NCBI GenBank assembly: GCA_964593885.1
Contig: CAZQKK010000001.1
Location: forward strand, 361,929 to 425,928
From: an uncultured Candidatus Saccharibacteria bacterium
Lineage (GTDB): Bacteria > Patescibacteriota > UBA1384 > CAILIB01
Reading direction: 5' to 3'
DNA: 64,000 bases
Shown here: positions 2,857-36,797 of the stretch, piece after piece
Numbering within the stretch: position 1 is the stretch's first letter
How the letters are laid out: every line of letters begins with the position of its first letter
Position numbers and translations under genes: made by a program
The notes under the pieces: model-generated
Seen by the model: only the letters and a program-made list of their open reading frames with translations
The model's database searches: none
What the model was told of the DNA's origin: nothing

Positions 2857-2857
2857 C

Positions 2858-11100: not shown

Positions 11101-12463
11101 TGCAAACACTAGCGGTACCGCTTACGTACACACAGACCTGGTGAAAGATGGTGAGTACTTCTACTACGTCCAGTCTATTGATAAGACCGGAAACCACTCA
11201 GCATCTTCCTCAACTGCTTCAGCCATTGCCACAGGTAGGTACACCAAGGCGCCAGCCATCGTTTCTGAGCCGTCAGCAGTGTCACAGGCACGATCAGCCA
11301 AGGTAAGTTGGGCAACTGCTCGCCAGGCCACATCTGCAGTTGAGTACGGAACCACTGAAGAATTTGGTAATACCACAGGTAATTCACCTACCCAGCTGGT
11401 TACCAGCCACGAGGTGCTCTTGGGTAACCTACAGCCAGACACCGTCTACTTCTACCGTGCGGTATTCTTGGATGAAGATGGAAACACGGGAGTTTCTCCA
11501 GTTGCCTCCTTCCTTACCAAGCCAGCACCAGTTGTGGCAGGCCTCGAGGTAACCGACATTACCCTCAGCAGCTTCTGGGTAAGTTGGCAGTCAAATGTAC
11601 CTTCCCAGGGTGAGGTTGTCTACGGTGCTACCCAGGCATTTGGGGGAACAGTGAAAGAAGATCCTTTCTACACCACCACCCACCGGGTAAAACTTGAAGG
11701 GCTGCCAAGTGACACCATCCAGAACTTCCAGATTAAAGCTACGGATGAAGAGGGCAACATCTTCACCTCAGACATCTACACCCAAAGTACCTTGGCACTT
11801 CCTAAGGTGAGCAACGTGAAGCTTGAGAACAAGGTAGGGGTTGATACACCTACGGTGATCGTTCAGTTCTCTACCAACGTTGATGCAACCACCATCGTGA
11901 GGTACAGCACTGAGGGAAGCACTGAGAAGATCTACAGCGGTGTGGATTACTCTCTCGAACACGAACTTATTCTGGATGGCCTCCTACCTACCAAACCTTA
12001 CGTTCTGAAGATCAGTGGTAGAGATAGGTACGGAAACGAGTCAGCCCAGCAGCTCCACACCATTACCACCAAGTCTGATACCCTCCCTCCTAAGGTAGAG
12101 GCAATTACCGAGCGCCAAAGGGTTAGTGGAGAAGGTGCGGCGGCAGAAGCACAGCTTACCGTTAGGTTGACCACCAATGAGCCTGCTAAAGTAGTAGTTG
12201 AAGCAGCTCAGGGTACCGGGGCAACCCAGTTCACCATTGTTTCTCCTGAGCAGGCACTCAGTAGGGAGCACACCGTCCTCCTTCGCCTCGGAAAGCCAAA
12301 CGCCGCCTACACCTACAGGGTTACGGTGACAGATGAAGCAGGTAACCAGGCACAGACAGAAACCAAGACAATTGTGGTAGGTAGGGCAAACAAGGGAGCC
12401 TTTGAGCAGATTCTGGCTATCTTCAGCAGGAGCTTTGGCTGGCTCGGTTCAGTATTCAAGTAA
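5120..12463 (+). CDS. Giant surface protein (about 2447 aa): N-terminal TM, multiple Kelch-like beta-propeller repeats, a repeated beta-sandwich domain, and multiple FN3-like domains.
   Basis: Long ORF with one N-terminal TM helix (IHWAIFGHYVAAIAIVGALVL). It carries many '..GTNT.YRYD....W..L' Kelch-like repeats and repeated 'TAPTNP' FN3-like linkers. An alternative ATG start at 5210 is possible because TATAATG overlaps the 5120 ATG. Confidence 0.75.
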   Translation: MTEMRSSDTIFEVQALPPKHRPLKRAHHLLMSKGGTYHRWHQHPHHKKIHWAIFGHYVAAIAIVGALVLQGGFGSTALAAPLTYTVSNKDAWNQGTLSNTDSETTAGDLKVAPDGAWTARTWKTPPETLTLGAAFATDDTDVFVLKGNGDNAFWKYSPTLNTWSVLTNAPYGAYGSSLRMGGADTLYAIFGGYIAKFAKYTISTNTWTLLADLPDTVFNGSTLGWTGSALYLLRAGGTQDFWLYDTALDSWSSVAGPPATVGYGADLIWDGSTYFYTPRGAGTNTIYRFAPGTSTWSTMSTNYSTTISETSFGVYYSGALYFMRGTNTANFDRCTISALTCSGGAWTALTAFPAATRYAGMVYIPSLTQFLVFRGNTTMEHWRYNIAGNSFVGPAAYPATTGTGNDLLWDGSDTVYSLRGGNTNNFYKYTISTNTWAALTVTGLGTINSDSTNLAKSGNYVYALRGNGTNTLYRYDVTNDAGGWTTMTNAPATIADGGDFVYPGSGSYIYATRGTNTVSFYAYHIGNNNWTTLDPTDPGVAVSTGGRLVSDGTNVYMNPGLGNTNLYRYNVAGNNWTTLSRMPFAPYYGFDFAYNSGKIYATAGNYANTFWEYNIAGGTWRQLKSTQNDTTNERGFYNGAAIEYIGSNTILATRGAGSSEVLSFSTGSYEYAATGTYVSQTLDLSYVASWNSLTLSTSIPSGAAVSSDTRTSADGSTWSSWAAVSGTTISSPTNRYLQIRINLTAGTGRSTTPTVSDYVLSYNTDEALPTNPATFTCNSQDVGGVALTSGNTYTYPKPSCSWTAGSDGESGLAGYYVYFGTNASADPASLGWQQTATTYTVEQPISAGTYYLRVASVDAKNNVATATTGFTYVYAGVSPPTTVTKTLTADFSGGTESNVVTTSDQIRLTSKAGFWQEERLTAVPAGVGAGAGMVYKSTTGLIYVLRGNGTNTFYSYNPTTDAWVTLSSTNLPVVNVGGMLVNGPGNYLYAHAGNSTQKMYRYDITNDAAGWDDLSAEDSPSAFSTGGFMVSNGTYIYAMRGNNDDAFYRYDPATTSDGQWTTMANVDFGFPTVGQNNIPTTGAGLAFDGASSIYAIQGNGQSGGFAKYNIGSNTWTQLYSTPLPIMPNAGAFIAWDPDLQKLLYNAGAISTKTYLYDPANPGWTAVASAPAQMSTGAFAFKQGTKFYVLRGGNNTQMYTYNSAKNTWRVPAAGLFGYNYASGSNFGVGYGADMITASDGTVYATRGNYSSDFIKYNPTTGAVTRLSNLPSGVYLGGSLVYRANTQQIYATVGTGTNNGTAFFIYTISTDTWAEQTSDPLPIIAGAGSSMAYDGSRYIYYTRAGTSTGWYRYDTSASVGARWSAALPTTNLLNLDYGSDLVYRSGYIYTLRGSNVNPNILYRFDTTALPGGTWTALASIPNPVYNDGFMVDGGNGYLYAARGINTNSVYRYDIVGNTWATVANFPGQVSIGGEGTTNGTSKIYSFAGQGTATWTDAIYSYVIQSSNSSFEETGSYTSPSIDLSTVYKWANLTVDYTVPSNGGVTIETRSSADNSSWSGWASTGTGQRNGTTYTYAISSPYNRYIQVRFSLSSTDGVFSPTVSSFQVNYYQDTTAPTNPTALALAKSQASGGVNITSDTWYNYSAPYFEWPAAGDVNGAADTAGGSGVANYYVYYGTDNTAVPSTAGVLQSGRSYTAGAMSSGQTYYLRIQTVDDAGNIQGAIWDAYTYKLDTTAPTNPGSIGVNPVGYTNVDSYTFTISGGASDANSGLLKYQYRTGADGANTWYDVSPALSATVTLPDGAHTPAHYVDGANVFYLRTVDAAGNVAPTPISVQYYFGSSAPSPPTNLQVTPATNTTNSFTFEWEDPAAFIGEANKLTYYYSVNTLPNEFNTNSTTAKAVGPAPFASQRGTNRFYVVAKDEAGNIDYDQYAYVDFTADTSAPPAPTAVTASDISNKEGGEFRLVISWLVPTITDPNNFNGYDIYAASDEAGPYTKIANTSGTAYVHTDLVKDGEYFYYVQSIDKTGNHSASSSTASAIATGRYTKAPAIVSEPSAVSQARSAKVSWATARQATSAVEYGTTEEFGNTTGNSPTQLVTSHEVLLGNLQPDTVYFYRAVFLDEDGNTGVSPVASFLTKPAPVVAGLEVTDITLSSFWVSWQSNVPSQGEVVYGATQAFGGTVKEDPFYTTTHRVKLEGLPSDTIQNFQIKATDEEGNIFTSDIYTQSTLALPKVSNVKLENKVGVDTPTVIVQFSTNVDATTIVRYSTEGSTEKIYSGVDYSLEHELILDGLLPTKPYVLKISGRDRYGNESAQQLHTITTKSDTLPPKVEAITERQRVSGEGAAAEAQLTVRLTTNEPAKVVVEAAQGTGATQFTIVSPEQALSREHTVLLRLGKPNAAYTYRVTVTDEAGNQAQTETKTIVVGRANKGAFEQILAIFSRSFGWLGSVFK

Positions 12464-14924: not shown

Positions 14925-15668
14925 GTGGGAGGCGCGGCCAAAAACCGGCGAGGGATAGGGTTTGCTGCAGCACTGATTGTGAGTGCTATTTCAGGTTTTT
15001 TTGCAGCTGCAGTGCCTTTTGGAGGTGAGCTCTCAGCAGTATCAAACCTGGCTGTCATAGTTTTTGCACTCCCAGCGCTCGTAGCCCTCTACCGTGTGGT
15101 GTCGCCGCAAAAGCTCTGGATACTCTTGGTACTAGCCTCATTCGCCATCCTAGTTGAGGCACTTTCAATTACCACGGGGTTTCCCTACGGTTTTTTCACC
15201 TACGGCTCAAAGATGGGGTGGCGGCTCGGAGGATTGGTGCCGTGGACGGTACCTTTTGCCTGGGTACCACTGGTGGTTGGTGCCGTGGCAATCTCTGCAA
15301 AGGTTGTGCCTAGGGGTGCCGCCAGGTTTGTCCTGGCCGTGTTGCTTCTCGTATTCACTGATCTCCTCCTAGATCCAGTTGCCGTTAAGCTTGGTTTTTG
15401 GAGCTACACATCTCCGGGTAGCTACTTTGGGGTACCCTTGAGTAACTTCATTGGGTGGGTTGTAAGCGGCGCCATTGGCGTGTTCCTCCTCAACCAGATG
15501 CTTCGTGGTAAACAAATGGGCAACCTCGCCACCAAGGGCTTCATCGCCATCCTCATCTTCTGGTCTGCAGCAGCCTGTACCCTTGGTCTGTACCTACCAC
15601 TACTCGTGGGCTGTGCCCTCATCCTCTTCACCTGGGGGACACAGGAGCAACAATTTAGGCTATTCTGA
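14925..15668 (+). CDS. Polytopic membrane protein; a link to the DUF422/carotenoid-biosynthesis-associated family is tentative.
   Basis: GTG start. Multi-TM with GFPYGFFTYG and LDPVAVKLGFWSY motifs. Confidence 0.45.
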   Translation: MGGAAKNRRGIGFAAALIVSAISGFFAAAVPFGGELSAVSNLAVIVFALPALVALYRVVSPQKLWILLVLASFAILVEALSITTGFPYGFFTYGSKMGWRLGGLVPWTVPFAWVPLVVGAVAISAKVVPRGAARFVLAVLLLVFTDLLLDPVAVKLGFWSYTSPGSYFGVPLSNFIGWVVSGAIGVFLLNQMLRGKQMGNLATKGFIAILIFWSAAACTLGLYLPLLVGCALILFTWGTQEQQFRLF

Positions 15669-15692
15669 AGGGGTAACTGTAACATACAACCT

Positions 15693-16574
15693 ATGGCTAT
15701 TCGTACCGCTCTCATTACGGCAAGTGGATTTGGCAGCAGGTTCTTTCCTGTTTCAAAGAGTGTTCAGAAGGAAATGCTCCCTGTACTCAATCGCCCCGTA
15801 CTGGACTACCTGGTAGACGACTGTATCGCTGCAGGGATCACCAACATCATCCTTACGGTGCGAGAAGGCCAGCCTTTAGTTCCTTACTACTACACCGAGC
15901 AACCCGCGGTGAAGCAGTTCTTTGATGAGCGTGGTTGGGGCGAAAAGTACGCAGCCCTTGAGACCCTCCACAACAAGGCTACCTTCACCTTTGTCACCCA
16001 GAGTCACGAAGATGGCTACGGAACAGGGGTGCCGGTGAGACTTGCCCAGAAGTACCTGGAGAACGAGGAAGCCTTCCTCTACCTCACTGGTGATGACTTT
16101 ACCTACAGCGGCCAGGGAAGTAGCAGTGCCTCTCAACTCATGTCGGTATGGGAGGAGACGAGAGCTGCTGCAGTTTTGAGTTGCCGAGAAGTTGAGTCAG
16201 AGCTAACCCACAAGTATGGCATTGTAGAGACCAGGGAAGAGGGTGGTAAGCAGTTCCTCACTACCTTCATTGAAAAGCCTGCCCAGGGAACTACCGCCTC
16301 TCGTCTAGCAAACATCAGTAAGTACGTCTTTACCCCAAGCATCTTCCCACTCCTTGAGAACCAGGGAGTTGATCAGAAGTCTGGTGAGCTCTACGTCACC
16401 GATACGGTACTCTCGCTATCAAAACAGCAGCCAGTAGCCGTGCACGTCCCACAGGGAGACTACCTGGACTGTGGTAACGTAGCGGGTTGGTTGAAAGCAA
16501 ACCTGAAGCTAGCATCCGCAGATCCAGCGCTCTGGGGTGAGCTTTCAGCCTACGTGTCTGAGCTGAATAAGTAG
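15693..16574 (+). CDS. galU: UTP--glucose-1-phosphate uridylyltransferase (GalU family nucleotidyltransferase).
   Basis: N-terminus AIRTALITASGFGSRFFPVSKSVQKEMLPVLNRPVLDY matches the GalU motif G-x-G-T-R-x-L-P-x-T-K-x-x-P-K-E-M-L-P. Confidence 0.75.
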   Translation: MAIRTALITASGFGSRFFPVSKSVQKEMLPVLNRPVLDYLVDDCIAAGITNIILTVREGQPLVPYYYTEQPAVKQFFDERGWGEKYAALETLHNKATFTFVTQSHEDGYGTGVPVRLAQKYLENEEAFLYLTGDDFTYSGQGSSSASQLMSVWEETRAAAVLSCREVESELTHKYGIVETREEGGKQFLTTFIEKPAQGTTASRLANISKYVFTPSIFPLLENQGVDQKSGELYVTDTVLSLSKQQPVAVHVPQGDYLDCGNVAGWLKANLKLASADPALWGELSAYVSELNK

Positions 16575-16575
16575 C

Positions 16576-17535
16576 ATGCAGGTACGAAAGCTACTGTACT
16601 GGGCTCTTGCGGGTCTCCTCGTTTTTTACCTGGTTAACCACCGTAACGAGCTTCTCCGTGTGGTTGAGGTTATGCTCCACGGAACGTGGTACTGGATGGC
16701 TTTTGCCGTAGTGTTCCAATCGTTTCACTACATCTTTCACGCAAATTCGCTTCGTGAGAGCTTTGCCTGCATGGGGATGGAGAGGAGGAGGCGGGAGTAC
16801 CTCCCAATTACCCTGGCTTCCCTTGCGGTAAACGTGGTGGCTCCAAGCCTCAATGTGTCGGGTGCCGCCTTTGTGGTAGATGAGATGAGGAAGAAGGGCT
16901 ACAAAGCAGTGGGAAGTGTCGTTGCAACGGCCATTGCGGTACTTTCTGACGGAGTGGCTTTCGTGGTTGGGGCCCTCTTAGTTGCCTGTTTCCTCTTCAT
17001 TAAACAGGAACTTTCAGCCCCAGTACTCCTCGGAGTACTCTTCCTCACCTCAACGGTTCTTACCCTGGTAGGACTGATTCTCTACTTCTGGAAGCGACCA
17101 AACTCTCTCAACTGGCTGTTTGCAATTATCGGGAAGAAGCGTGCTCACACCTGGAAAGAGGAGTGGCACAAGATTACCGAAGTGGCACTACCTTTCAAAA
17201 AGATTACCCCTGTAGTGATGTACGAGGGGCTTTCCCACCTCTCAAACTTTATTTCCCTCTGCTGCGCCTTCTTGGCATTTGGTGTGGATCCGGTGAGCCT
17301 CGTTCCGGCAACCGCCTACGTGGTAGCGGTGATCTTCATCATTTTTTCGCCAACCCCCATGGGCATTGGCTTTGCGGAGGGTGGAATGGCGCTGGCAATG
17401 GTAGGGCAGGGGGTGCCAGAGGCCGAAGCTACAGCCATAACCATCGCCTTTCGAGGTGTAAGTTTCTGGTTACCTTTCCTGATTGGGACCTTCTTTTTAC
17501 ACAAGATTCAGCAAGGAGCAGGACATGAAGCCTAA
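16576..17535 (+). CDS. Flippase-like integral membrane protein (UPF0104/LPG-synthase TM-domain-like).
   Basis: About 8 TM helices; the architecture resembles the lysylphosphatidylglycerol synthase TM region. Tentative. Confidence 0.45.
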   Translation: MQVRKLLYWALAGLLVFYLVNHRNELLRVVEVMLHGTWYWMAFAVVFQSFHYIFHANSLRESFACMGMERRRREYLPITLASLAVNVVAPSLNVSGAAFVVDEMRKKGYKAVGSVVATAIAVLSDGVAFVVGALLVACFLFIKQELSAPVLLGVLFLTSTVLTLVGLILYFWKRPNSLNWLFAIIGKKRAHTWKEEWHKITEVALPFKKITPVVMYEGLSHLSNFISLCCAFLAFGVDPVSLVPATAYVVAVIFIIFSPTPMGIGFAEGGMALAMVGQGVPEAEATAITIAFRGVSFWLPFLIGTFFLHKIQQGAGHEA

Positions 17536-18685
17536 CAGTAGAGACCAATCCAAAGACCTCATTTGGCTGGAGGTGAGCAAGTCAGCTTTCGCCCACAACC
17601 TTTCTCAAATACGTAAGCTAGTGGGGGACGAGGTATTAATTGCAGCCTGTGTGAAGGGGAATGCCTACGGTCACGGAATCATCGAGAGCTCAAAGCTACT
17701 CGCTGAGCTTGGGGTTGATTGGCTGTGCGTCTTTAACCCTGATGAGGGCTTGGCACTTCGGGAGGAGGGGATTACTAAGCCTATCCTAGTGCTGGGGTAC
17801 ATTCCACACGCCAGAATGGCAGAGGTTGTCCAGGCAGATTTGGTGCCGTTTCTCTCGAGCATTGAAGATGCCCTCTCGCTTGCCAGGGTGGCCAAGGAGG
17901 TGGGTAAGCGTGCGAAGGTACACCTGAAGCTGGATAGCGGATTAACACGCTTTGGTGTGCGTCCTGAAGCGTTTCAGGAGTTTGCCCTTGGCGTCCTTGC
18001 GCTCAAAGACCTGGAGGTAACCGGTGTAGGTACCCACTTTGCAACCTCTGATGCAGTAGGTGCAAACCCATACTTTGAAGATCAGCTTGGGGTGTTTGAA
18101 CACGCGCTCATGGAGCTCTCAGAGGCTGGCTTCGTCCCGCAGATCAGGCACGCCGCAAACAGCGCTGCCATCTTGCGCTACCCAGAGAGCCACTACGAGA
18201 TGGTGAGACCAGGGCGTGCCCTGTACGGCTACCTTCCCCACCCTACCGATGTCGCTCACTACGAGGCGAAGGGGGTTACTCTCAAGCAGGTGCTTCGGGT
18301 AAAGTCTCGGGTGGTGCAGCTCAAAAAGGTGCCAAAAGGTACAGCGGTGAGCTACGGTGGGACCTTCGTGACAGAGCGGGAAACAACGTTGGCAATGCTT
18401 CCGGTTGGCTACGCTGATGGGTACAGCCGATTTCTCAGCAACTGTGGCTCGGTGATTGTGAGCGGAAAGCGGGCGCCAATCAGGGGGAAGGTCTGCATGA
18501 ACGTGACGATAGTTGATGTGACAGATATTCCCCACGTAGAGGTAGGCGATGAGGTGGTACTCTTGGGCGAACAGGATGGTGAGCTCCTCAGTACCTACGA
18601 GATGGCAGAGCTCTGCATGCAAACCCTCCCGTACAACGTGATTACCGCCTTTCAAGAGACGCTGCCACGTTTCGTTGTAGATTAG
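17525..18685 (+). CDS. alr: Alanine racemase.
   Basis: PLP-lysine motif CVKGNAYGHG, typical length, and a C-terminal beta domain. The start was chosen at the ATG at 17525 (MKPNS..). Confidence 0.85.
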   Translation: MKPNSRDQSKDLIWLEVSKSAFAHNLSQIRKLVGDEVLIAACVKGNAYGHGIIESSKLLAELGVDWLCVFNPDEGLALREEGITKPILVLGYIPHARMAEVVQADLVPFLSSIEDALSLARVAKEVGKRAKVHLKLDSGLTRFGVRPEAFQEFALGVLALKDLEVTGVGTHFATSDAVGANPYFEDQLGVFEHALMELSEAGFVPQIRHAANSAAILRYPESHYEMVRPGRALYGYLPHPTDVAHYEAKGVTLKQVLRVKSRVVQLKKVPKGTAVSYGGTFVTERETTLAMLPVGYADGYSRFLSNCGSVIVSGKRAPIRGKVCMNVTIVDVTDIPHVEVGDEVVLLGEQDGELLSTYEMAELCMQTLPYNVITAFQETLPRFVVD

Positions 18686-18689
18686 GAAA

Positions 18690-18720
18690 TAAAAAAAGGT
18701 AGAACTGGTGTTCTACCTTG
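18690..18720 (-). terminator. Intrinsic terminator for the minus-strand plsY-fusion gene; the hairpin overlaps its stop codon.
   Basis: AGGTAGAAC-tggt-GTTCTACCT hairpin with a T-run on the minus strand. Confidence 0.5.
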
Positions 18721-20497
18721 TGAAGGTGATCTCGCGGTCGGTGTGGGGGTCGTAGAAAGCATCTACGGTGATTCCCAGCTGTCCAGCCAGGTTTCGGAGC
18801 TCTTCTGCATACTCACGATTTGGGGCGCCAACGTAGGCGTCATCCCTGGCATCTCGCCACATGGCGGTGAGGCCAGTGGCGTGGATGATGGTCTCGGCGC
18901 AGCAGGCAAAGACCACGTGACCAAAGAGGCCGATGATCTTGCCCATGCCCATCCCTTTACCAGGGAGCTTCACGTGACCGCCGGCTACCAGGGTGGCATC
19001 CGGGAGGATATCCTTAAGGTTCTTGGGGCTGTTGGCAGGTTTGCCGACATCCACAATCTTCAGGCGCTTCCTGCAGTGAGCCGGGTCGAAGGCCAACCCG
19101 CCACTTGCGTTGGTACACAGGAAGAGGGTAGCGGCTTCAGTAGTTGCCTGGTTGAGGCTCACGATCCTTACGGGTTTCTCGGGGTTGATGGCTTGCCAGT
19201 CGAGGAGGAGGCGATCAAGACCGCCACCTTCCTTGTCAGGGTTGCCTACCACCAAGAGCTCAGCGCAGTCGGGGTTGCGGAGCTGCTGCTCCACTACCTT
19301 CCTACCAACCGAGCCGGCGGCTCCAACCACTGCCTTAACCTCAGCTTCGCCACGGCGCAACCTGTCGGTATCAACCGTCTGCTGGAGCCTTGCTTCGGTG
19401 AGGGTGGCGGCAACCTCAGTGAAGGTGTTGCCGTTGGTCACCTTAAGGTCTGGGTGTTTCTCCCGGATGCGCTTGAGGTAGTCGTAGCCGTTCTTGTGGG
19501 TGATACCTGTGCCTGCACCCTGACCAACTACCTCAAGCTCTGGGATGAGCACCATGTAGTAGTCAGTGAGATCTAGCATGTGCACGAAAGCAACCTCGTA
19601 ATGAGGGTGCTTCGGGTCAACGAAAGCGCTCATCTCGTAGGGAATACCCACAGAGTGGCAGATGATGGGTTGTCCGTTGAGCATGGTGATGCCCTTGGAG
19701 TGACCCATGTAGCTCATCCACTTTGGCATGTGGGGCATTGCCTTCTGAATCAAGGTTGCCGGGAGAAACCTCGCCCACCAGATGCGATTAACTGCTGCTT
19801 CCTTGCACGCCTCGGCGGTGTCGCCAGGAACGTGGATGAAGAACAGACAGTGCCTCGCGTTTTCTGGGAACTTACGTAACCCTAACCTCCAGTGGAAGAT
19901 CGGTTTCTCTTCGTCCCGAAGGATTCTGAGAATGTTCTTCTTGTGGAGTAGGGCAACCGTAATACCGAGAAGTACCCCTGTTACGGTGTAGGTGAGATTT
20001 CCCATCATGAAGGGTGAGAGAACCACCAGTGCTACCGCAGCAAGGACAGACCCTACCGTCACAATCCCTGTTGGCACGAAGCCGAGCAAGAATATGACAA
20101 GGCAGATGAGTGCTAGGACTGGTTGGAGAGCCAGGAGGACGCCGAGGCCGGTGGCCACAGCTTTTCCTCCCTTTCCACCAAACGGATAGGTGTGACCAAG
20201 AACGGCGAGAGCAGCAACTACCAGGGTTTCCCCAGGGTTGAGCTGGAGCTTGTGGGCGAAGTAGACGGGTAGGTACCCCTTCAACACATCCCAGGCAAAG
20301 GCTAATCCGGTGAAGGAAAACCTTTGCACGCGGGAGTGGTGCTTGAGGGCTCTGAAAAGGTTGGTTGCACCAACGCTGCCGCTTCCGATTCGTACTAGGT
20401 CTACACCTAGCAAGCGGGCAAACATGCGAGCGAGCGAGGCACAGCCAAGGACGTAGGCCACAAGGGCCAAAGGAATAACGAGAGGATTGATGAGCAT
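18713..20497 (-). CDS. plsY: Glycerol-3-phosphate acyltransferase PlsY fused to a C-terminal acyl-ACP reductase (AAR)-like NAD(P)-binding domain.
   Basis: N-terminal 200 aa carry the PlsY motifs GSGSVGATN, VLKG and LGHTYPFGGKGGKAVAT. The C-terminal 380 aa match cyanobacterial AAR blocks (TNGNTFTE, AVVGAAGSVG, GGHV, FACCAE with a Cys at the catalytic position). No stop codon separates the two parts. Confidence 0.8.
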   Translation of the reverse strand: MLINPLVIPLALVAYVLGCASLARMFARLLGVDLVRIGSGSVGATNLFRALKHHSRVQRFSFTGLAFAWDVLKGYLPVYFAHKLQLNPGETLVVAALAVLGHTYPFGGKGGKAVATGLGVLLALQPVLALICLVIFLLGFVPTGIVTVGSVLAAVALVVLSPFMMGNLTYTVTGVLLGITVALLHKKNILRILRDEEKPIFHWRLGLRKFPENARHCLFFIHVPGDTAEACKEAAVNRIWWARFLPATLIQKAMPHMPKWMSYMGHSKGITMLNGQPIICHSVGIPYEMSAFVDPKHPHYEVAFVHMLDLTDYYMVLIPELEVVGQGAGTGITHKNGYDYLKRIREKHPDLKVTNGNTFTEVAATLTEARLQQTVDTDRLRRGEAEVKAVVGAAGSVGRKVVEQQLRNPDCAELLVVGNPDKEGGGLDRLLLDWQAINPEKPVRIVSLNQATTEAATLFLCTNASGGLAFDPAHCRKRLKIVDVGKPANSPKNLKDILPDATLVAGGHVKLPGKGMGMGKIIGLFGHVVFACCAETIIHATGLTAMWRDARDDAYVGAPNREYAEELRNLAGQLGITVDAFYDPHTDREITFTR

Positions 20498-20622: not shown

Positions 20623-21705
20623 CTATTCTTCGTCGGCAAGGTGCTTCTCAAGGAAGAGGTGGAGGGCAACGATGAACATGCTCTCAGACCAGCCCAAAGG
20701 TGAGTTCTCGTTGTGGACCTCACTGTGCGAGAAGTAGAGCTCGGGGATATCGCCTACAGAGTTAATGGTAGCCATAGAGCGCTGCATGAACTCTTTTGCC
20801 TTTTCAGTGTTGCCAAGCTGCTGGTAGATGATGGCAAGCCAAGAGAGGCCAAAGGTCCACTCCGCTTCCTGCGACGTGCCGTCTACGTTGTCTCGGTTGT
20901 AGTACCTATCACCTTTGTACCTGAGGACTCCTAGGTCTTTCACCAGGTGGTACTCAACGTTTGAGAGGATTTGATCGCGCTCCTTGGCGGGCACGATGTT
21001 GTAGGGGAAGATCAGCGAGAGTAGCGCCAAATCTACAAACTTCTGCTGTGATTCCCTCGGGAGGAGCTTAGCCAGTACCGCTTCACCCTTGGCGATGAGT
21101 CCACGTGGTACCCTGATGTACGAGAGCTTTGAGACCTTCTTGAGGCCAGCTACACACGCTCCAACCGATGAGGCGTGCACTTCCTCGTTCTCTTCCCACA
21201 TCCCGTTGTCTGGCTCTAGCCAGTACTCAATGCTTGAGAGGTAGTTGACCAGCTTCTGGATGATCCGTTTGTCAGCCGCACTGCTCACAATGTGGAAGCC
21301 AGGCTTCTGCTCTAACTCGCCAATCCTGAAGAGGATGGCGCCAACGGCGTCGTGCTGTTTGTTGCCCCAGTCCTCCCAGAACTGATCAAAGCTGTCTGGG
21401 TGGTACCTCGGGTGGATGAAGTCGTTACGGTCTACTGGTTTCTCAGCAATGGCGGCATCAATCTTTGCCTCGTGCTTGAGGAAGATATCCAGGATGGCGC
21501 GGTACGTTTTGGCAACTACATCCCACCTGTCTACATACTCAAAGGCGAGGCATTCGTAGAAGTTATCGCGCAGCCAGGCTTTGTCGTAGCCAGTTTTGAC
21601 CGAGTGGGCAGATGCCATGAAGAGCCCCGAGGATTTCTGGAGCTTTTCGAGGTTTTTTACGTGGCGCCTGAGAACCTTCTCGTAGTCAATCCTGATCCGA
21701 GGCAT
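20623..21705 (-). CDS. Glycoside hydrolase family 15-like (glucoamylase-like) protein.
   Basis: YDKAWLRDNF and GMWEENEEV motifs typical of the GH15 (alpha/alpha)6 catalytic domain. Confidence 0.6.
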   Translation of the reverse strand: MPRIRIDYEKVLRRHVKNLEKLQKSSGLFMASAHSVKTGYDKAWLRDNFYECLAFEYVDRWDVVAKTYRAILDIFLKHEAKIDAAIAEKPVDRNDFIHPRYHPDSFDQFWEDWGNKQHDAVGAILFRIGELEQKPGFHIVSSAADKRIIQKLVNYLSSIEYWLEPDNGMWEENEEVHASSVGACVAGLKKVSKLSYIRVPRGLIAKGEAVLAKLLPRESQQKFVDLALLSLIFPYNIVPAKERDQILSNVEYHLVKDLGVLRYKGDRYYNRDNVDGTSQEAEWTFGLSWLAIIYQQLGNTEKAKEFMQRSMATINSVGDIPELYFSHSEVHNENSPLGWSESMFIVALHLFLEKHLADEE

Positions 21706-21708
21706 GGG

Positions 21709-23502
21709 TTACTTCGCTCCGTACATCTTACTGACGTACTCGTTGACCATACGGGTGCTTGAGAACATTGGTGAGATGGTGGCCATGGTGTCGCGCATCA
21801 TTGCTACCCAGAGGCGAGGGATGCCGTTCTTGTCGTGCTTGTAGAAGGTTGGGATGATCTTCTTCTCGAAGAGGCTGTAGATGTGGGTTTCAGCCTTGTG
21901 GATAGGGAGGGCGTAGCCAAGGCCGTACCAGTCTACTTCGTATGCCCAACCATCAGGGGTGGTGAACTGGATGGCGCCGTTTGCCGCTGCTTTCATGCCA
22001 CTGGTTCCCGAAGCCTCAAGTCCAAAGATTGGGGTGTTGAGCCAGATGTCGGCACCAGCAACAAGGTACTTTGCCAGGGTGATGGAGTAGTCATCTACGA
22101 ATACTGCGCGACGCTTGAGGTCGTAGTTGGCGAGGTACTCAATGTGGGCGATGATGTCTTTGCCCTGCTGATCAGCTGGATGTGACTTTCCTGCTACAAT
22201 AATTTGTATTGGCTTGTCAGAGCTGAAAACTAGCTCTTTTAGTTTTTCAATATCGTTGAACAACAGGTCTGGGCGCTTGTACGTGGCAAACCTACGAGCC
22301 CATACAATGGTGAGTACATCTTCCTCAAGTCTGACGCCTGTTTCGTCGTACACCTTACCCAAGAGCTTGCGCTTGAGTTCCATGTGCGTGCCCCAGAGGT
22401 CGGCATCCGAGAGCTTGCTGAGGGCGCGCCACATCTTTGGGTCTGAGGTGGTAGTCTTCCAGGTTGGCATCAGCTTAGTCCAGTGGTCTTGCCACTCTTT
22501 CGCTACCCACTGGGGGAGGTGGACACCGTTGGTAACTGCCTCAAGCTTGAAGTCTGGCCAGAGGTCCTTTGCCTTCTTGGCGTGGAGCTTGGAAACGGCG
22601 TTGCTCTTGCGTGACATACGGAGTGCCAGCATGGTCATGGAGAAGTTGCCTGGCTTTTCAGGGGCGTCTCCTAGGGAGATTACGGTATCAATGCCAACTC
22701 CTGAGTCAAAGGCGTACTTCCCGAGGAGGGTTTTCACCATGTCGTGGGGGAAGGCGTCATTTCCAGCTGCAACCAGGGTGTGGTTGGTGAAGATGAGCTG
22801 CTGCCTAGCTGCTGCTTTGGCGGCCTCAAGGCTCATTCCCGATTTCATGTGCTTGCTGATGAGCTCAAGACTGAGGAAGGCCGAGTGACCTTCGTTCATG
22901 TGGAAGATGGTAGGGACAATGCCAAGTCTCTCCAGGGCGCGGTAGCCACCCACAGCGAGAACGAGCTCTTGCTGGATGCGCTTTGCCTGGTCTCCAGCGT
23001 AGAGCTGGTCGGTGATGTTACGGTCAGCATCACTGTTCTTCCAGTGGTCGGTATCGAGGAGGAAGAGCGAGGTGCCATCGATGTTGAATCTCCAGATCTG
23101 GGCGTAGACAATTCGCTCCTGAACGGGAACCTCAATGAGGACGGTCTCGCCCTTCTCATCTACGGCGAGGTGGAGGGGTACCTTGGCGGGGGTGATGAGC
23201 GTGGTGCTCTCGTGCTGGCCTGAGGTATCTACAAACTGGTGGAAGTACCCCTTCTTGTAGAAGAGGCCAACCGCTACAAACGGCAGCTTCTGGGCAGCTG
23301 CTTCCTGGACAATATCTCCAGCAAGAACTCCAAGACCTCCTGAGTAGATGGGTAGCTTGTCAGTAATGCCGTACTCGGCACAGAAGTAGGCAACGTAATC
23401 GTGGGCACCCAAACCAGAAGCCCCTCTTTTTGGTGTGGAAGATGTAAACATGGTACCTACAGTATAGAAGCTGAAGCACACCTTGAGCAACAGGTGGAGC
23501 AT
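21709..23502 (-). CDS. glgP: Alpha-glucan (glycogen/maltodextrin) phosphorylase, GT35 short form.
   Basis: FCAEYGITDKLPIYSGGLGVLAGD and the PLP-site motif EASGTSGMKAAANG. Confidence 0.85.
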   Translation of the reverse strand: MLHLLLKVCFSFYTVGTMFTSSTPKRGASGLGAHDYVAYFCAEYGITDKLPIYSGGLGVLAGDIVQEAAAQKLPFVAVGLFYKKGYFHQFVDTSGQHESTTLITPAKVPLHLAVDEKGETVLIEVPVQERIVYAQIWRFNIDGTSLFLLDTDHWKNSDADRNITDQLYAGDQAKRIQQELVLAVGGYRALERLGIVPTIFHMNEGHSAFLSLELISKHMKSGMSLEAAKAAARQQLIFTNHTLVAAGNDAFPHDMVKTLLGKYAFDSGVGIDTVISLGDAPEKPGNFSMTMLALRMSRKSNAVSKLHAKKAKDLWPDFKLEAVTNGVHLPQWVAKEWQDHWTKLMPTWKTTTSDPKMWRALSKLSDADLWGTHMELKRKLLGKVYDETGVRLEEDVLTIVWARRFATYKRPDLLFNDIEKLKELVFSSDKPIQIIVAGKSHPADQQGKDIIAHIEYLANYDLKRRAVFVDDYSITLAKYLVAGADIWLNTPIFGLEASGTSGMKAAANGAIQFTTPDGWAYEVDWYGLGYALPIHKAETHIYSLFEKKIIPTFYKHDKNGIPRLWVAMMRDTMATISPMFSSTRMVNEYVSKMYGAK

Positions 23503-23581
23503 TCCTGGGACGAAACTACCCAGTGAGAAGTGGTCTCAGGGGGAGTTTTGCGTGAAGCCTTTCTTGGTGTAGCATGTACGT

Positions 23582-24136
23582 ATGTACGACGAGACCCACC
23601 CAGACTACAGTCACAAGATTACAAAAGATCTCTCACGCGAGCACCTCCTCCACAGGCTGGTTGCGGGGAGTGCTTTCATCTTTGCCCTCTGCATTCTCCC
23701 TGTTGCCCAGTACTTCCTCGTCCAGAGCAGAACTGAGGTTACAACAACTCAGGAGAAGGGTGAGGTTGCAGGTGTGAGTACCTCAAACAAGGACGCTGAT
23801 CCTGAAGTGCTCGGTGTCGCTGCTACCCCTGAAGCTTCACCAAAGACAAAGGCCGAGTGTGAGGCGAAGAAGACTAAAGACCTCGCAGACCTCCAGCGTT
23901 TCATTGACGGGAAGAAAAAGGCCATGCTTACCGGCTACGAGGTAAAGGTGCAGCCTTACCGCTACGCGCTCTCTGCCATCGATCCAAATAGTCCTTCAGC
24001 CTCAGCCGAGAGATCAGAGCTCACCAGCCTCATTGATGCCGAGTACCAGCCATACCTCAAAGAGTTAGCTACGGTTGAACAGCTAGTTGTAGATGAGAGC
24101 GCAAGAATTAACGGTACTGCCTGTCCGCTAGAGTAG
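23582..24136 (+). CDS. Hypothetical membrane-anchored protein.
   Basis: One TM helix followed by a charged/Lys-rich region; followed by a bidirectional terminator. Confidence 0.4.
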   Translation: MYDETHPDYSHKITKDLSREHLLHRLVAGSAFIFALCILPVAQYFLVQSRTEVTTTQEKGEVAGVSTSNKDADPEVLGVAATPEASPKTKAECEAKKTKDLADLQRFIDGKKKAMLTGYEVKVQPYRYALSAIDPNSPSASAERSELTSLIDAEYQPYLKELATVEQLVVDESARINGTACPLE

Positions 24137-24151
24137 TCCTCGGTAGGGGCG

Positions 24152-24186
24152 ATGAAAAAATGAGGCTTTAGGCCTCATTTTTTGTT
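24152..24186. terminator. Bidirectional intrinsic terminator.
   Basis: AAAAAATGAGGC-ttta-GGCCTCATTTTTTG. Confidence 0.6.
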
Positions 24187-25925
24187 TCGGTGAGCAGTTT
24201 CACCAGTGGACCTCCGGCAAAGCCTTGGATACCACATCCCCAGGAAGCGCCACTCTCAGCCGATGCAATTTCGCCAGGTGTTCCTAGGTAGTGCTGCCAG
24301 AGGAGTTCACTGCAGGCACTGTCGGTGAGCATGGCGATGACGCTGTGGTAGAGCTCCTTGTTGTGCCTGTGGAGGGATATGGCGGCGAGACAGTTGATGT
24401 GGAACCAGCTATCTCCTTGGTGGTAGCTCAGGTTATTTTCGCCGGTACTCTGTTTCTGGAACTCAGGATCCTGCCAGTTGAGCGAGGTAATTCCTCCCCA
24501 GCGGGTCCAGCAGTTATCTAGGACGGTGGTGAAGGTGGCATCCCACTGATCTCTGGTGAGGAGATCGGGTTGGATGAGGTATGCCAGGAAGACATTTGGG
24601 CGTTTCTGGTTTGAGAGCGAGAGATCTTCCTCAAGACCATCACGCAGGTACTCTTGGAAGAGGGTGTGCCTGATTGTCCCAAGGTGTGCTTCGCGATCGG
24701 TTTCAAACTGCTGGCTACCGGTGAGCTCAGCTAAGAGCTGGAGGCAGAGGCCGTACATTGCCTGAATCTCAATGCGGCAGCCAACCCTCCCGATGGTGTC
24801 CATCCAGGTTGTGTTGTGTCCAGACCAGATGAGACCAGTAGGGGTTTTTCGAGACTGGTTGAGTCCTGAGATTGCACCCTGGAGGAACGTGGTGATTTCG
24901 CCCCGCATAGCCTCAGGGATGTTTGAGATGCCTACCTCGCGGATGAGGAGGGAGAGCCAACCTACGCCATCAGAGCAGTAGGTGCCAGACCCAGCGTAGG
25001 TGGGAAGCTCACCCATGTAGGTTGAGGTGTTGAGGTAGCGGGAAATGAGGGTGAGCTGCTGATCAAGGGGGAGTCCAAGACCTGTAATCAGTTCATCCCT
25101 GCTCCAGTGCTGGTGGAACCAAGGGAAGCCAGCGTAGTAGCCGGTACTGACGTGGAGGTACTGGAGGGAAGTTTCTGCAAGGTAGAGGCTAACCTGGTGG
25201 GGAGTTGCAGAAGGCATGGTCTCAAAGCTTGCAGGTTTGAGGCTAGAAGCTGCTCTGGCACCCGCACGTGCCTGCTCCTCACTGAAACCAATGCCCAGGT
25301 AAAGGTTAGTAGTCTCAACCGTGCCAAGGCTGACAATGTGGAGGTTAGATGGCTCGGAGTTTCGCTGGGAGTCCCTCCCGTACCTCACAGGCTTCCAGGT
25401 AATTTCAGGTTTATTGAGACGGTCACCCGAGGTAACGCAGAGGTAGAGGGTGGTACCAGCGAGAGTTGGATCGGTGTAGCTTACCATGTAGCCGCCACGT
25501 TCTGTGGCTACCTCGTAAGTTCGCCCCTCATCTGGCTGCAGGTAGATACCGCGCATATCCAGGTTGAGTTCTAGCTCAGCGGGCTTGCTGCAGGTGATAC
25601 GCATACCGCCAGCACTTGGAAGGTCTGTAACCAGTTGGAAGGTAACATCACGACCGTTTGAGTACTGGTGCTTCACAGCTCCCGGGGTTGCATGAATGCT
25701 CTCGGGGAGCTCTGGTTTGCTAGGGAATATCTCAACTCTCTCGAGGAACTTCCAGAACTGGTGAGGCTCATCCTGCTCGTTGGTGAGGAACCAGCCCTCG
25801 TACCGGGTGGCTCTGCCAAAGTTAAACTGGCTGAACCAGTCACGTTTTCCGCGCAGGAAAGAAGCGGAGTAGCCGGTGGGCTCTCCCGAGGCTTCTCCTA
25901 CAGCAGTAACGTGCCTGATGATCAT
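24168..25925 (-). CDS. Amylo-alpha-1,6-glucosidase / glycogen debranching enzyme-like (GDE_C) protein.
   Basis: An approximately 585-aa (alpha/alpha)6-type protein with a WSRDE motif, in alpha-glucan context. Confidence 0.55.
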   Translation of the reverse strand: MIIRHVTAVGEASGEPTGYSASFLRGKRDWFSQFNFGRATRYEGWFLTNEQDEPHQFWKFLERVEIFPSKPELPESIHATPGAVKHQYSNGRDVTFQLVTDLPSAGGMRITCSKPAELELNLDMRGIYLQPDEGRTYEVATERGGYMVSYTDPTLAGTTLYLCVTSGDRLNKPEITWKPVRYGRDSQRNSEPSNLHIVSLGTVETTNLYLGIGFSEEQARAGARAASSLKPASFETMPSATPHQVSLYLAETSLQYLHVSTGYYAGFPWFHQHWSRDELITGLGLPLDQQLTLISRYLNTSTYMGELPTYAGSGTYCSDGVGWLSLLIREVGISNIPEAMRGEITTFLQGAISGLNQSRKTPTGLIWSGHNTTWMDTIGRVGCRIEIQAMYGLCLQLLAELTGSQQFETDREAHLGTIRHTLFQEYLRDGLEEDLSLSNQKRPNVFLAYLIQPDLLTRDQWDATFTTVLDNCWTRWGGITSLNWQDPEFQKQSTGENNLSYHQGDSWFHINCLAAISLHRHNKELYHSVIAMLTDSACSELLWQHYLGTPGEIASAESGASWGCGIQGFAGGPLVKLLTETKNEA

Positions 25926-27694
25926 TTGGTGGCGAGGGCGTACGCCTCGTGGTACCTATCGTAGAGCTCGTGCCAGTCAAACTTCTGGATCACCTGGTAG
26001 GCTCTCATTCTATCCAGCATGTGGACGCGGGGATCTAGGTTTACCGCAGTCTTGAGCATCTTGGTGAGGGTGGCAGCAACTTCTGAGTCACTTAGCCCTT
26101 CACGTTCTAGGATGAGCGAACCTCTCTCGTCTTTGGCGCGCTCTGAAGCGGCAAGGCCAAACCCGGCAAGGTTACTGGTGATTCCTGGTACTCCCATGGC
26201 AAGGCTCTCCATAGGGGTGTAGCCCCAAGGCTCGTAGAGGGAAGGGAAGACGCCGAGGTCACAGCCGGAGATGAGCTGGTAGAGGGAGCGATTAAAGATG
26301 CCGTCAAAGCCATCAAAGTAGGCAGGGAAAAAGATAACCTTTACCCGGTCTTCTTCTCTGTTGGTAAGGCCGGCTGCCTTGGCGGCATTGAGGATACCGT
26401 CTTGATCGGGGTTTCTCAGGTCAAATGGTGAGATAGGAGGTTGCTCGTACACGGGGAGCTTCACGATGAGCTGCTTGAGCTGCTCGATAACCTGGGCAGG
26501 CAAGATGGTAATGTTGGCGCAGTGCTCGCCCTCTTCCCACAGTGACTGGTAGAGCTCACGCTGCTGGCGGGCGCTGTAGGTGTGGAGGGTGTGGGTGAGG
26601 TGGTTGTTTACCGCAAGCTGGAAGGTAACCTCGGGTCTAATTCTCAAGGCATCACCTGGGACGAAGAAAAAGGCGACAACAGTCTTGGGCGAGTTCTCAG
26701 CAATGAGCTCCTTGTTGAGAGTACCGAGGGACTGGAGGTAGAGGTCGTAGCCCTTGTTGTGGGTTTCGTACCTCCCCATGGTGAACTGGTAGGTGGTGCT
26801 ACTGAGGTCAAAACGGTAGCTAGAGAAGAAGTAGGCACTGACGAAATCGTGGAGAACCTCGCGATTTTCATCGTGCATATCGCAGAGCGCATCAAAGGCA
26901 GGGAAGAGCTTACTATCTACCCCATTCTCAGTGATGATGTCTGGTTTTCGCCCAAGGAACTGCGAAGCTTCGCGCCCGGTAAGGTGCGAGACGGTGGTGA
27001 AAACCGTTGAGAGCTGGGCTGAGAGGGCTTCAAGCTGGTGCTTGGCAATTACGTTGTGGCTCTCTGAAGCCTCGGTTGGGTCTATCTTTTCGATGTGGGT
27101 GTAGATGTCTTCGCCACCAGAAGAGAGAGCTCTTCCAAGGACGGTGGCGTGGGTGGTGAACACCGTTTTTACCGCAGGGTAGTCGTGGAGGACGAGGAAG
27201 GCACCAGCAGCCAGCCACTCGTGGCCATGGAAGAGGGTGCTCTCACCAGTCTCAGCTTGGTACTCGGCTACCAGGTGACCTACCGCGATAGACCAGAGGA
27301 GTGGGGTGTCTACATCAAAGAAGTCGGTGTTCAGGGTGTTGAGCTTGTGGTGCTCCCAGAAGCTTGCCTTGTAGGTATTGAGCGAACTAGCAAGACCGCC
27401 CCATCCAAGGAGGATGCAGGGTGGGTGACCCTCGGTGATCCAGTACCCGTACTGGGCTTCTATGCCGCGTTCAGCGAGCTTGGCGAACACCTTGGCAAAC
27501 ACCTCTGGGGTGTCTTCCTGGTGGAAGTTTGGGTTGCTAGAGAGGAGTGGTCCTACGGTGGTGTAGGAATCAGGAAACTTGGCTTGCGCGTAGGCAAGCT
27601 TTGTGGTGAGAACGGTGTGGATGCCGCCTACCTTATTGCAAACTTCCCAACTAGCCTCGAAGAGGTGGGCTGATGTTGGCTTCACGTGAGCCAA
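25922..27694 (-). CDS. Glycogen synthase, GT3 (eukaryotic-type) family.
   Basis: N-terminus LFEASWEVCNKVGGIHTVL is the hallmark of GT3 glycogen synthases. Confidence 0.8.
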   Translation of the reverse strand: MAHVKPTSAHLFEASWEVCNKVGGIHTVLTTKLAYAQAKFPDSYTTVGPLLSSNPNFHQEDTPEVFAKVFAKLAERGIEAQYGYWITEGHPPCILLGWGGLASSLNTYKASFWEHHKLNTLNTDFFDVDTPLLWSIAVGHLVAEYQAETGESTLFHGHEWLAAGAFLVLHDYPAVKTVFTTHATVLGRALSSGGEDIYTHIEKIDPTEASESHNVIAKHQLEALSAQLSTVFTTVSHLTGREASQFLGRKPDIITENGVDSKLFPAFDALCDMHDENREVLHDFVSAYFFSSYRFDLSSTTYQFTMGRYETHNKGYDLYLQSLGTLNKELIAENSPKTVVAFFFVPGDALRIRPEVTFQLAVNNHLTHTLHTYSARQQRELYQSLWEEGEHCANITILPAQVIEQLKQLIVKLPVYEQPPISPFDLRNPDQDGILNAAKAAGLTNREEDRVKVIFFPAYFDGFDGIFNRSLYQLISGCDLGVFPSLYEPWGYTPMESLAMGVPGITSNLAGFGLAASERAKDERGSLILEREGLSDSEVAATLTKMLKTAVNLDPRVHMLDRMRAYQVIQKFDWHELYDRYHEAYALATK

Positions 27695-27695
27695 C

Positions 27696-28052
27696 CTACG
27701 CTTGTGGGGTAGCTGAATCGCCTACGGTGAACTGCGGTGTTTCAGCGGCAGGGGCTGCTGGGGTGTTTCCCATGCGCAGGAACTTCTCAATGCTTACCAT
27801 CATCCTGAGAGGAGTAGGGTGCTCGCGGAGGCGTGAGGCAAGCTCAGGCTCTTCAAACACACCCTCTACCCAACTGGCGAAGTCATTCTTGTGCTCGTTG
27901 ACGTGGTTGTGGAATACCTCAGGCTCAATGAGATTGATGGCTTCTGAGAGCTCATCGAGGGTAAAAAGTTTGTCTCCGTTGACGAGGGTGAAAGACTTTT
28001 CTTCAGCAACCCTAAAGTTTCGCTTGTCTTCAACACTGCTTAGTATTCCCAT
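27696..28052 (-). CDS. Hypothetical protein (118 aa).
   Basis: ATG at 28052 preceded by AAAGGAGGAG SD; 2 nt upstream of the GT3 gene on the same strand. Confidence 0.45.
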   Translation of the reverse strand: MGILSSVEDKRNFRVAEEKSFTLVNGDKLFTLDELSEAINLIEPEVFHNHVNEHKNDFASWVEGVFEEPELASRLREHPTPLRMMVSIEKFLRMGNTPAAPAAETPQFTVGDSATPQA

Positions 28053-28224
28053 GTCTCCTCCTTTGCTAACCGGTGAATGATAGTTTGTTGAAATGTATGA
28101 ACATTTTATGTAAGTATTGTACACCCGCTGCAACCTTTTTTGCAATAGTTTGCGCGGTGGTACTAGGCTTCTTTGCAGGGGTTCATGTTTTGTAACAGGT
28201 TACGCGAAAGGGTATACTTTTGGT

Positions 28225-31482: not shown

Positions 31483-31484
31483 AC

Positions 31485-36742: not shown

Positions 36743-36797
36743 GCCCCTAGTATAGCGAAAAGCATGGTACAATGAACCTGTTACAAAGCGAGGGGCA

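Follow-up and report, generated by a model that had tools for sequence, protein, structure and literature searches.

Within a 64,000-nucleotide stretch of contig CAZQKK010000001.1 from an uncultured Candidatus Saccharibacteria bacterium (the window), we analysed a minus-strand gene whose predicted product joins PlsY, the membrane glycerol-3-phosphate (G3P) acyltransferase with which phospholipid synthesis begins, to a C-terminal domain resembling cyanobacterial acyl-ACP reductase (AAR; ACP, acyl carrier protein). The 594-amino-acid open reading frame (ORF) at positions 18713-20497 begins with an ATG and has no internal stop codons, as read from its translation and from re-translation of the sub-coordinates listed below. 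A search with the C-terminal part against 5.8 billion proteins returned only five clusters, of 594-601 amino acids and with 100, 90, 70, 69 and 53% identity to the window protein, all of which carry an N-terminal PF02660 domain. Four of these (P0002-P0005, 53-90% identical) come from separate NCBI, JGI, ENA and Logan assemblies and share the PlsY plus AAR-like architecture. Recurrence of the same architecture in independent assemblies shows that the fusion is genuine: the single frame, together with the four close and at least 10 distant clusters of independent origin, rules out a frameshift or a chimeric assembly. The fusion noticed in an earlier note on this DNA is thereby confirmed, with no stop or frameshift between its halves. 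The gene product is best explained as a bifunctional membrane enzyme, with the following parts:

18713-20497, minus strand: whole fusion gene, 594 codons plus a stop codon at 18713-18715 (ORF list and re-translation; architecture also in P0002-P0005)
19898-20497, minus strand: PlsY domain, residues 1-200, integral-membrane G3P acyltransferase (PF02660, TIGR00023 and 5XJ5 matches; all-helical in the AlphaFold model)
20360-20386, minus strand: PlsY motif 1, GSGSVGATN, residues 38-46, with S39, S41, T45 and N46 (alignment to Aquifex PlsY, aaPlsY; roles from PMC5700162)
20150-20173, minus strand: PlsY "phosphate hole" loop, KGGKAVAT, residues 109-116, in which K112 corresponds to aaPlsY K104 (aaPlsY alignment and translation)
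19853-19915, minus strand: inter-domain linker, residues 195-215, with the clade-invariant FHWRLGLRxFP (invariant alignment columns; low pLDDT in both models)
18716-19852, minus strand: AAR/TAD-fold domain (TAD, terminal amidation domain of nonribosomal peptide synthetases), residues 216-594, with N-terminal, Rossmann dinucleotide-binding and C-terminal subdomains
19424-19438, minus strand: TNGNT motif, residues 354-358, counterpart of TTGNT in AAR and of the invariant Thr-Thr-Gly in TAD (family conservation; role from TAD)
19304-19324, minus strand: dinucleotide-binding loop GAAGSVG, residues 392-398, equivalent to AAR 162-GATGDIG-168 (family alignment; AAR loop from PMC7089970)
18890-18910, minus strand: FACCAET, residues 530-536, with the predicted nucleophile C532 (18902-18904; AAR C294), the family-invariant E535 and T536 and a clade-specific second Cys, C533 (family conservation, hidden Markov model alignment and the role of C294)

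The PlsY half

The N-terminal half matches PF02660 (G3P_acyltransf) across the entire profile (E = 2.7e-29; 102.8 bits against a cutoff of 24.1; residues 13-192, profile positions 1-164 of 164). It also matches the TIGR00023 PlsY model (E = 4e-36), where its 124.6 bits fall slightly below the equivalog cutoff of 137.2, and the Aquifex PlsY structure 5XJ5 (E = 1e-21). These three matches bear out the assignment of the first 200 residues to PlsY that had been made from the letters alone.

We took the roles of individual PlsY residues from the PlsY structure paper (PMC5700162). Residues of the G3P clamp and ligands of the G3P 2-hydroxyl are kept and invariant within the window's clade (S39, R49, K112, N188, S150 and H185, corresponding to aaPlsY S35, R45, K104, N180, S142 and H177). 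Ligands of the acyl-phosphate are likewise kept, comprising T45 (T41 in aaPlsY, a carbonyl ligand), H102 (H92) and the phosphate-hole loop K112-A-V-A115 (positions 104-107). Purifying selection on the substrate ligands is clear in the PlsY half of this clade. Judged by these residues, the PlsY half looks like an apparently catalytically competent acyl-phosphate:G3P acyltransferase and, because the ligands are retained, the fusion protein would still need a donor of the acyl-phosphate type.

The only substitution is at the position of aaPlsY N37, the proposed oxyanion stabiliser, which is Ser41 in the window protein and Gly in three members of its clade. Ser (6%) and Gly (2%) are natural minority variants at this position in ordinary PlsY, and the N37S enzyme keeps 18% activity with a normal Km (PMC5700162). 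Among the fusions, Ser or Gly occupies this position in 9 of 15, compared with 8% of ordinary PlsY, a raw count that is uncorrected for shared ancestry.

The C-terminal domain and its family

Taken alone, the C-terminal ~380 residues match the TIGR04058 AAR model with E = 1e-6 and 28.3 bits, against a curated cutoff of 449.7. Of the profile searches that the earlier note proposed for the two halves, PF02660 gives a significant match and TIGR04058 a weak one, far under its cutoff. When a profile built from the five domains was compared with solved structures, AAR (6JZU/6JZQ) was the only significant family (E = 6e-4), followed by PigE (4PPM), and alignment of the clade profile to AAR (6JZU sequence) with hhalign gave a probability of 95.9%. 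An exhaustive hidden Markov model (HMM) search of 1.84 billion representatives recovered 840 relatives at E <= 1e-3, mostly standalone proteins of 340-375 amino acids. A profile of 75 family sequences headed by the window's domain in turn matched the PigE N-terminal domain (4PPM, 1.8e-64), AAR (1e-50), TAD (1e-22) and glutamyl-tRNA reductase (2.5e-12), placing the domain in a broader family of PigE/TamH thioester-reductase domains, TAD and, more distantly, glutamyl-tRNA reductase.

The match to the AAR/TAD/PigE-N fold family covers the N-terminal, Rossmann and C-terminal subdomains. A generic Rossmann dehydrogenase is ruled out, as the fold match extends over the full length of the domain and singles out AAR and TAD, other dehydrogenases following only after a large gap. 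The Semialdhyde_dh NAD-binding domain (PF01118) matches below threshold (19.1 against 26 bits) and over the Rossmann part only. Aspartate-semialdehyde dehydrogenase (ASADH) gives a marginal, Rossmann-level match in the family-profile search (E about 1e-3) and is absent among the fold matches listed. Pfam scanning of the fusion protein yielded no match to PF02774 or the catalytic domain of phosphorylating aldehyde dehydrogenases, and Pfam and NCBIfam scans yielded none to PF02504, DegV or Dak2.

The earlier note had aligned four motif pairs with AAR, block by block and with the catalytic Cys retained. All four are present and are invariant in five close homologues (TNGNTFT, VVGAxGSVG, GGHV and FACC.ET), and the alignment stands. 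In the family HMM, C532 corresponds to AAR C294, E535 to E297 and G392/G395/G398 to G162/G165/G168, while K486 takes the place of Y247 and the arginines that contact the NADPH 2′-phosphate or CoA 3′-phosphate are lost (R189 to N419, R193 to G426). AAR R314 becomes A558, as read from the aligned sequences. Roles of the AAR residues (C294, the dinucleotide loop and the R189/R193/R314 pocket) follow PMC7089970. Among 154 family members, C532 is kept in 153 and E535 in 152, including all fusions. The TNGNT motif is also well conserved (T354 in 136, G356 in 143 and N357 in 131 of the 154), as are the glycines of the GxGxxG loop, G392/G395/G398 (141-145 of 154), and D483 and P487, found in nearly all. 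In TAD, the invariant Thr-Thr-Gly contacts the catalytic Cys. A second cysteine, C533, directly follows C532 (C532-C533, 18899-18904) in the window's clade and in P0006, where most family members have Leu or Met; it could act as an acyl relay or a redox switch.

On this profile and motif evidence, the C-terminal half is a full member of the AAR/TAD/PigE-N fold family with its predicted thioester machinery intact, and C532 is the predicted thioester-forming nucleophile. It is not an AAR orthologue, because its score of 28 bits lies far below the cutoff of 450, and because it shares ~19% identity with AAR and has lost the NADPH 2′-phosphate arginines. The description of this half as AAR-like is right, since its homology to the AAR fold runs over the full length, with the refinement that orthology is not implied.

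The fusion is not restricted to the five close clusters. A local HMM of the PlsY half identified ten further, divergent PlsY fusions (P0006, P0021, P0026, P0032, P0043, P0048, P0077, P0119, P0145 and P0155), so that the arrangement recurs in at least 15 cluster representatives belonging to several divergent subgroups. The ten additional clusters are rare, with 1-7 sequences each, and derive from metagenome-derived assemblies only. A word-indexed homology search with broad alignment returned 11 proteins. In a scan of species-representative genomes, a collection that does not hold the window's own genome, the sole homologue was an unrelated standalone protein beside a ketoacyl synthase in a Solirubrobacterales metagenome-assembled genome (MAG). 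A neighbour-joining tree places every PlsY-fused domain within a single region of the family, with standalone proteins among them, and active-site neighbourhoods vary among the PlsY-fused subgroups. Automatic annotations call the fusions either "PlsY" or "fatty aldehyde-generating acyl-ACP reductase", the latter applied by IMG to two of them.

The same domain also lies behind acyltransferases of the PlsC/AGPAT/Aas type, a second and unrelated acyltransferase family (P0018, at 8001-9755 of locus L016, and P0104), and it is found joined to class-III aminotransferases in the manner of PigE and TamH. What recurs is a glycerolipid acyltransferase with an AAR-like domain behind it. A separate class of ~700-amino-acid proteins (P0036, P0058, P0071, P0159 and about 10 others) carries the AAR-like domain behind a conserved, soluble N-terminal domain of ~270 residues, which had no match in PDB sequences, Pfam or NCBIfam.

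Full-text literature searches found no published description of a PlsY-reductase or PlsY-AAR fusion, and a Pfam search for PlsY fusions in the 2017 PlsY structure paper reported only DegV (PMC5700162). Both results agree with the earlier note, which knew of no such fusion. The architecture is nevertheless not unique to this gene, given the several divergent clades and the PlsC-type fusions. Each half comes from a known family, and the novelty lies in the architecture and, possibly, in the chemistry.

Genomic context

The window's GroEL is 80% identical to sequences labelled "Patescibacteria group bacterium" and 67-68% identical to those of Berkelbacteria and Portnoybacteria, which places the window in Patescibacteria. 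Some of the six GroEL clusters at 93% identity or above share their large contigs with four of the five close fusion proteins, so the fusion in this exact form is confined to a narrow lineage. The standalone AAR-like protein P0007 (loci L011/L012) and the GroEL P0221 (70% identical to the window's) come from NCBI MAGs labelled "Verrucomicrobiae bacterium" and are closest to Patescibacteria proteins; these labels may be wrong.

Within the close clade the neighbourhood is fully syntenic, running from glycogen genes through the fusion to a convergent alanine racemase, LPG_synthase_TM, NTP_transferase and Caroten_synth. Membership of a single lineage accounts for this synteny, which says little about function. 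The divergent fusions are located among housekeeping genes. At P0021, the stop codon of the fusion overlaps the start of gpsA, which encodes the G3P-making enzyme; this fusion occupies the classical housekeeping plsY slot, with G3P supplied separately. Other informative neighbours are an acetyl-CoA carboxylase carboxyltransferase near P0006, DAGK_cat near P0119 and P0021, and a Zn-alcohol dehydrogenase beside P0155. This last fusion (L003, 3250-5019; L004, 1586-3355) has a Firmicute-like context (SLH, Coat_F) and lies directly downstream of the 410-amino-acid Zn-alcohol dehydrogenase.

No recurring partner gene (plsX, plsC, ACP, fadD or fakAB) was found among the window and 18 related loci. 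Genes for PlsX, FakA/B, ACP, type II fatty acid synthesis or acyl ligases were likewise absent from the 64-kb window and ~250 kb of related loci, which is weak negative evidence. A motif scan detected no ACP-like motif in the window, and no aldehyde deformylating oxygenase was seen among the scanned window ORFs of at least 150 amino acids.

Directly upstream of the fusion (20623-32798) lies a large glycogen-metabolism cluster that encodes GH15, a glucan phosphorylase, a GDE_C debranching enzyme, a glycogen synthase, GH57 and a GT4/GT5 starch-synthase-like enzyme, and that is syntenic in the related genomes L001 and L005. Its glycogen synthase is of the eukaryotic type (PF05693, E = 2e-114), which is unusual for so small a genome. 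On the other side, positions 14925-18685 hold Caroten_synth (PF04240), NTP_transferase, LPG_synthase_TM (PF03706) and the alanine racemase, a group beside the fusion that is conserved in three genomes; the first three could form a membrane-lipid or glycolipid modification module.

Farther away, a 2447-amino-acid ORF (5120-12463, plus strand), whose L001 orthologue has faint Kelch, fn3 and PhoD_N-type matches, probably encodes a large surface protein and is followed by an ABC/FtsX (MacB-like) pair. A PilB/T2SSE ORF (36798-38765, plus strand) has an HU-like match (PF00216) at residues 3-57 and overlaps the opposite-strand dnaX ORF (35183-37063) by 265 nt, indicating either a mis-set start codon or an HU-PilB fusion. 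ARAGORN detected no tRNA or tmRNA genes in the 64 kb. ORFs of 300-780 amino acids without a Pfam match are located at 97-2436, 2795-3937, 3937-4899, 28117-30189, 33116-34198 and 46601-48127.

Proposed acyl-donor supply and its alternatives

We put at roughly 40% the probability that the C-terminal domain supplies an acyl donor to PlsY, phosphorolysis being the version that we favour. The N-out, C-in topology of PlsY would place the C-terminal domain in the cytoplasm, and the cytoplasmic DegV found at the same end of PlsY in other fusions is consistent with this. A fatty acyl group would be loaded onto Cys532 as a thioester, either from acyl-CoA or acyl-ACP or through NAD(P)+-dependent oxidation of a fatty aldehyde, and the activated acyl group would then be handed to the tethered PlsY instead of, or besides, being reduced. 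Most likely, inorganic phosphate would attack the thioester to give acyl-phosphate, in the manner of GAPDH or ASADH, and PlsY would use this product at once to form lysophosphatidate. GAPDH and ASADH routinely interconvert thioester and acyl-phosphate, and phosphorolysis of the Cys-thioester is plausible here. Tethering would shield the labile acyl-phosphate and channel it, offering a supply independent of PlsX and FakAB in this Patescibacteria lineage. We advance only tentatively the wider proposal that the AAR-like domain constitutes a third route to acyl-phosphate, with inorganic phosphate as acceptor and fusion to PlsY for channelling, and that the AAR-like subfamily as a whole, whether PlsY-fused, PlsC-fused or standalone in streamlined genomes, consists of acyl-donor suppliers rather than reductases.

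The only recognised sources of acyl-phosphate are PlsX, which acts on acyl-ACP, and FakAB, which uses free fatty acid and ATP. For Nealsonbacteria, another Patescibacteria lineage, PlsY and PlsC are reported but neither PlsX nor ACP, and where their acyl-phosphate comes from has been called an open question (PMC7242380). The authors of the PlsY structure argue that acyl-phosphate, being unstable, should have an escort to PlsY (PMC5700162). AAR docks on the enzyme that consumes its hydrophobic product, with its acyl tunnel facing the interface (PMC7089970). TAD, which has the AAR fold, carries bound NAD and an invariant Cys; in the view of its authors ammonia, rather than hydride, most plausibly attacks the thioester, although activity was not detected. 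Phosphorolysis gains circumstantial support from the FakB-like DegV at the same end of PlsY, from the Patescibacteria origin of the gene and from gpsA beside P0021.

Several considerations weigh against an acyl-phosphate product. The characterised members of the family (AAR, the PigE and TamH reductase domains and glutamyl-tRNA reductase) all reduce a thioester to an aldehyde, so that the prior favours a reductase. To our knowledge, no member of the family releases acyl-phosphate, and we know of no PlsC-type partner that uses it. The common denominator may be the handling of acyl-thioesters at the membrane rather than acyl-phosphate. A story of acyl-phosphate alone does not fit the PlsC-type fusions or the degenerate-PlsY subgroup of P0145 and P0155, whose PlsY half is without most of the ligand residues (equivalents of aaPlsY S35, T41, N42, R45 and K104). 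Because these ligands are lost, the fusions of that subgroup cannot work by the acyl-phosphate route, and they may have a different function related to aldehydes or alcohols. No phosphate-site signature common to the PlsY-fused clades was found, the extra His and Lys residues of the window's clade (H508, H539, H334 and K486) not being shared with the other PlsY-fused clades. No plsY lies beside the standalone relatives P0007, P0008 and P0042, which are encoded in housekeeping regions of streamlined genomes. The organism is also expected to be without ACP and fatty-acid synthesis as a source of the acyl group. A structure prediction of the fusion, as the earlier note had proposed, gave an all-helical PlsY half, but the full-length AlphaFold model computed from five sequences (pLDDT 64.5, pTM 0.44) has no readable domain interface. 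Finally, the dinucleotide cleft is uninformative, as CoA and NADPH bind there in turn in AAR (PMC7089970).

The domain might instead be an ordinary reductase of thioesters (or of acyl-phosphate) that yields a fatty aldehyde, with PlsY serving only to place it at the membrane near the acyl pool. The aldehyde, or an alcohol made from it, would go into another product, for example a wax, a signalling lipid or an ether or alkyl lipid, or the reaction would drain excess acyl-phosphate. We regard this as possible though doubtful. The characterised relatives are all NAD(P)H-dependent reductases, the GxGxxG loop and the Cys/Glu pair are fully conserved, and the IMG name of two fusions and the alcohol dehydrogenase directly upstream of P0155 point the same way; the degenerate PlsY half of P0145 and P0155 is possibly a mere membrane anchor. 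For the window's clade, however, purifying selection on the PlsY ligands argues against an anchor role. Fatty aldehydes would have no obvious use in a streamlined Patescibacteria genome, the window shows no aldehyde-consuming partner such as the deformylating oxygenase, and the lipids of a cell fraction enriched in the candidate phyla radiation (CPR) are all acylglycerols. A reductase would also compete with PlsY for the same acyl donor, which leaves no clear reason for a conserved fusion. The computed evidence does not separate phosphorolysis from ordinary reduction.

Other ways of coupling the two halves appear less probable. It is improbable that the domain is a self-acylating carrier, in which acyl-Cys532 would serve as a substitute for ACP and donate directly to the fused PlsY or PlsC-type enzyme without free acyl-phosphate. 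Such a carrier would explain why the domain is fused behind two unrelated acyltransferase families, one of which, the PlsC type, takes thioester donors. It would also suit the failure to find ACP in Nealsonbacteria, the one CPR lineage studied, or an ACP-like motif in the window, and the frequent Ser or Gly at the N37 position of the fusions might mean an altered donor, an enrichment left uncorrected for shared ancestry. Full conservation of H102 and the phosphate-hole loop, through which PlsY holds the phosphate of acyl-phosphate, argues against it, as does the position of the PlsY acyl-phosphate site deep in the membrane (PMC5700162), an unlikely reach for a protein-bound thioester. We give similarly little credence to a catalytically silent module that binds NAD(P)(H) or acyl-CoA and tunes PlsY to redox state or acyl supply: the dinucleotide/CoA cleft is conserved and the related TAD had no demonstrable activity in vitro, but near-universal retention of the Cys and Glu, including in all fusions, is a pattern of catalysis rather than of ligand sensing alone. 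Least likely is a role in making the glycerol backbone, as a reductase of dihydroxyacetone-phosphate (DHAP) or 1-acyl-DHAP that would let PlsY start from DHAP. An NAD(P)-binding Rossmann domain fused to two acyltransferase families and weak matches to the NAD-binding domains of several dehydrogenases might suggest this, but the fold and invariant Cys/Glu pair are those of thioester enzymes and not of ketoreductases, the PlsY half keeps the G3P 2-hydroxyl ligands S150 and H185, and a separate gpsA directly follows one fusion gene.

If the domain does supply acyl-phosphate to PlsY, it would represent a new entry step into bacterial phospholipid synthesis and an AAR fold that carries out phosphorolysis. 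It would explain how Patescibacteria without PlsX and ACP start phospholipids from scavenged acyl groups, and would give insight into how ultra-small symbionts rebuild membranes from host lipids. The conserved fusion of PlsY to a Cys-thioester enzyme provides a single clonable candidate for the stated question of acyl-phosphate supply in CPR bacteria. Even a plain reductase would be a new membrane-anchored architecture, recurrent in several clades, for a family whose known members come mainly from pathways to alkanes and natural products.

Among known systems, cyanobacterial AAR (6JZQ/6JZU; TIGR04058) shares ~19% identity with the fusion domain, which is without equivalents of R189/R193 and has K486 in place of Y247. 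AAR is free, soluble and cyanobacterial, whereas the domain described here is tethered to a membrane acyltransferase in Patescibacteria, with no deformylating oxygenase partner found. The TAD of the nonribosomal peptide synthetase CarI (9E4S/9E56; 12-14% identity) differs in its partner, a peptidyl carrier protein, in its place in secondary metabolism and in its proposed nucleophile, ammonia. PigE and TamH give the best match to the family profile (N-terminal region of 4PPM) and are, like the window protein, natural fusions to an enzyme that uses the product, in their case an aminotransferase; they release an aldehyde for transamination, whereas the partner here is a lipid acyltransferase with no known use for an aldehyde. 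GAPDH, ASADH and ArgC offer the chemical model, linking Cys thioester, acyl-phosphate and aldehyde with NAD(P), but to phosphorylating aldehyde dehydrogenases the fusion domain is similar in the Rossmann part only, under the Pfam cutoff and without their catalytic domain. If phosphorolysis is right, the domain would have functional analogues in PlsX (acyl-ACP:phosphate transacylase) and FakAB (fatty acid kinase); these two have no sequence or fold kinship with the domain, and a Cys-thioester route is described for neither. The fusions of PlsY to DegV (FakB-like) in Bellilinea and Thermanaerothrix have the same layout, with a cytoplasmic acyl-handling protein at the PlsY C-terminus, and have been read as channelling acyl-phosphate. 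DegV/FakB binds fatty acids and needs the kinase FakA and ATP, whereas in the window protein this place is taken by an unrelated dinucleotide-binding enzyme of the Cys-thioester type.

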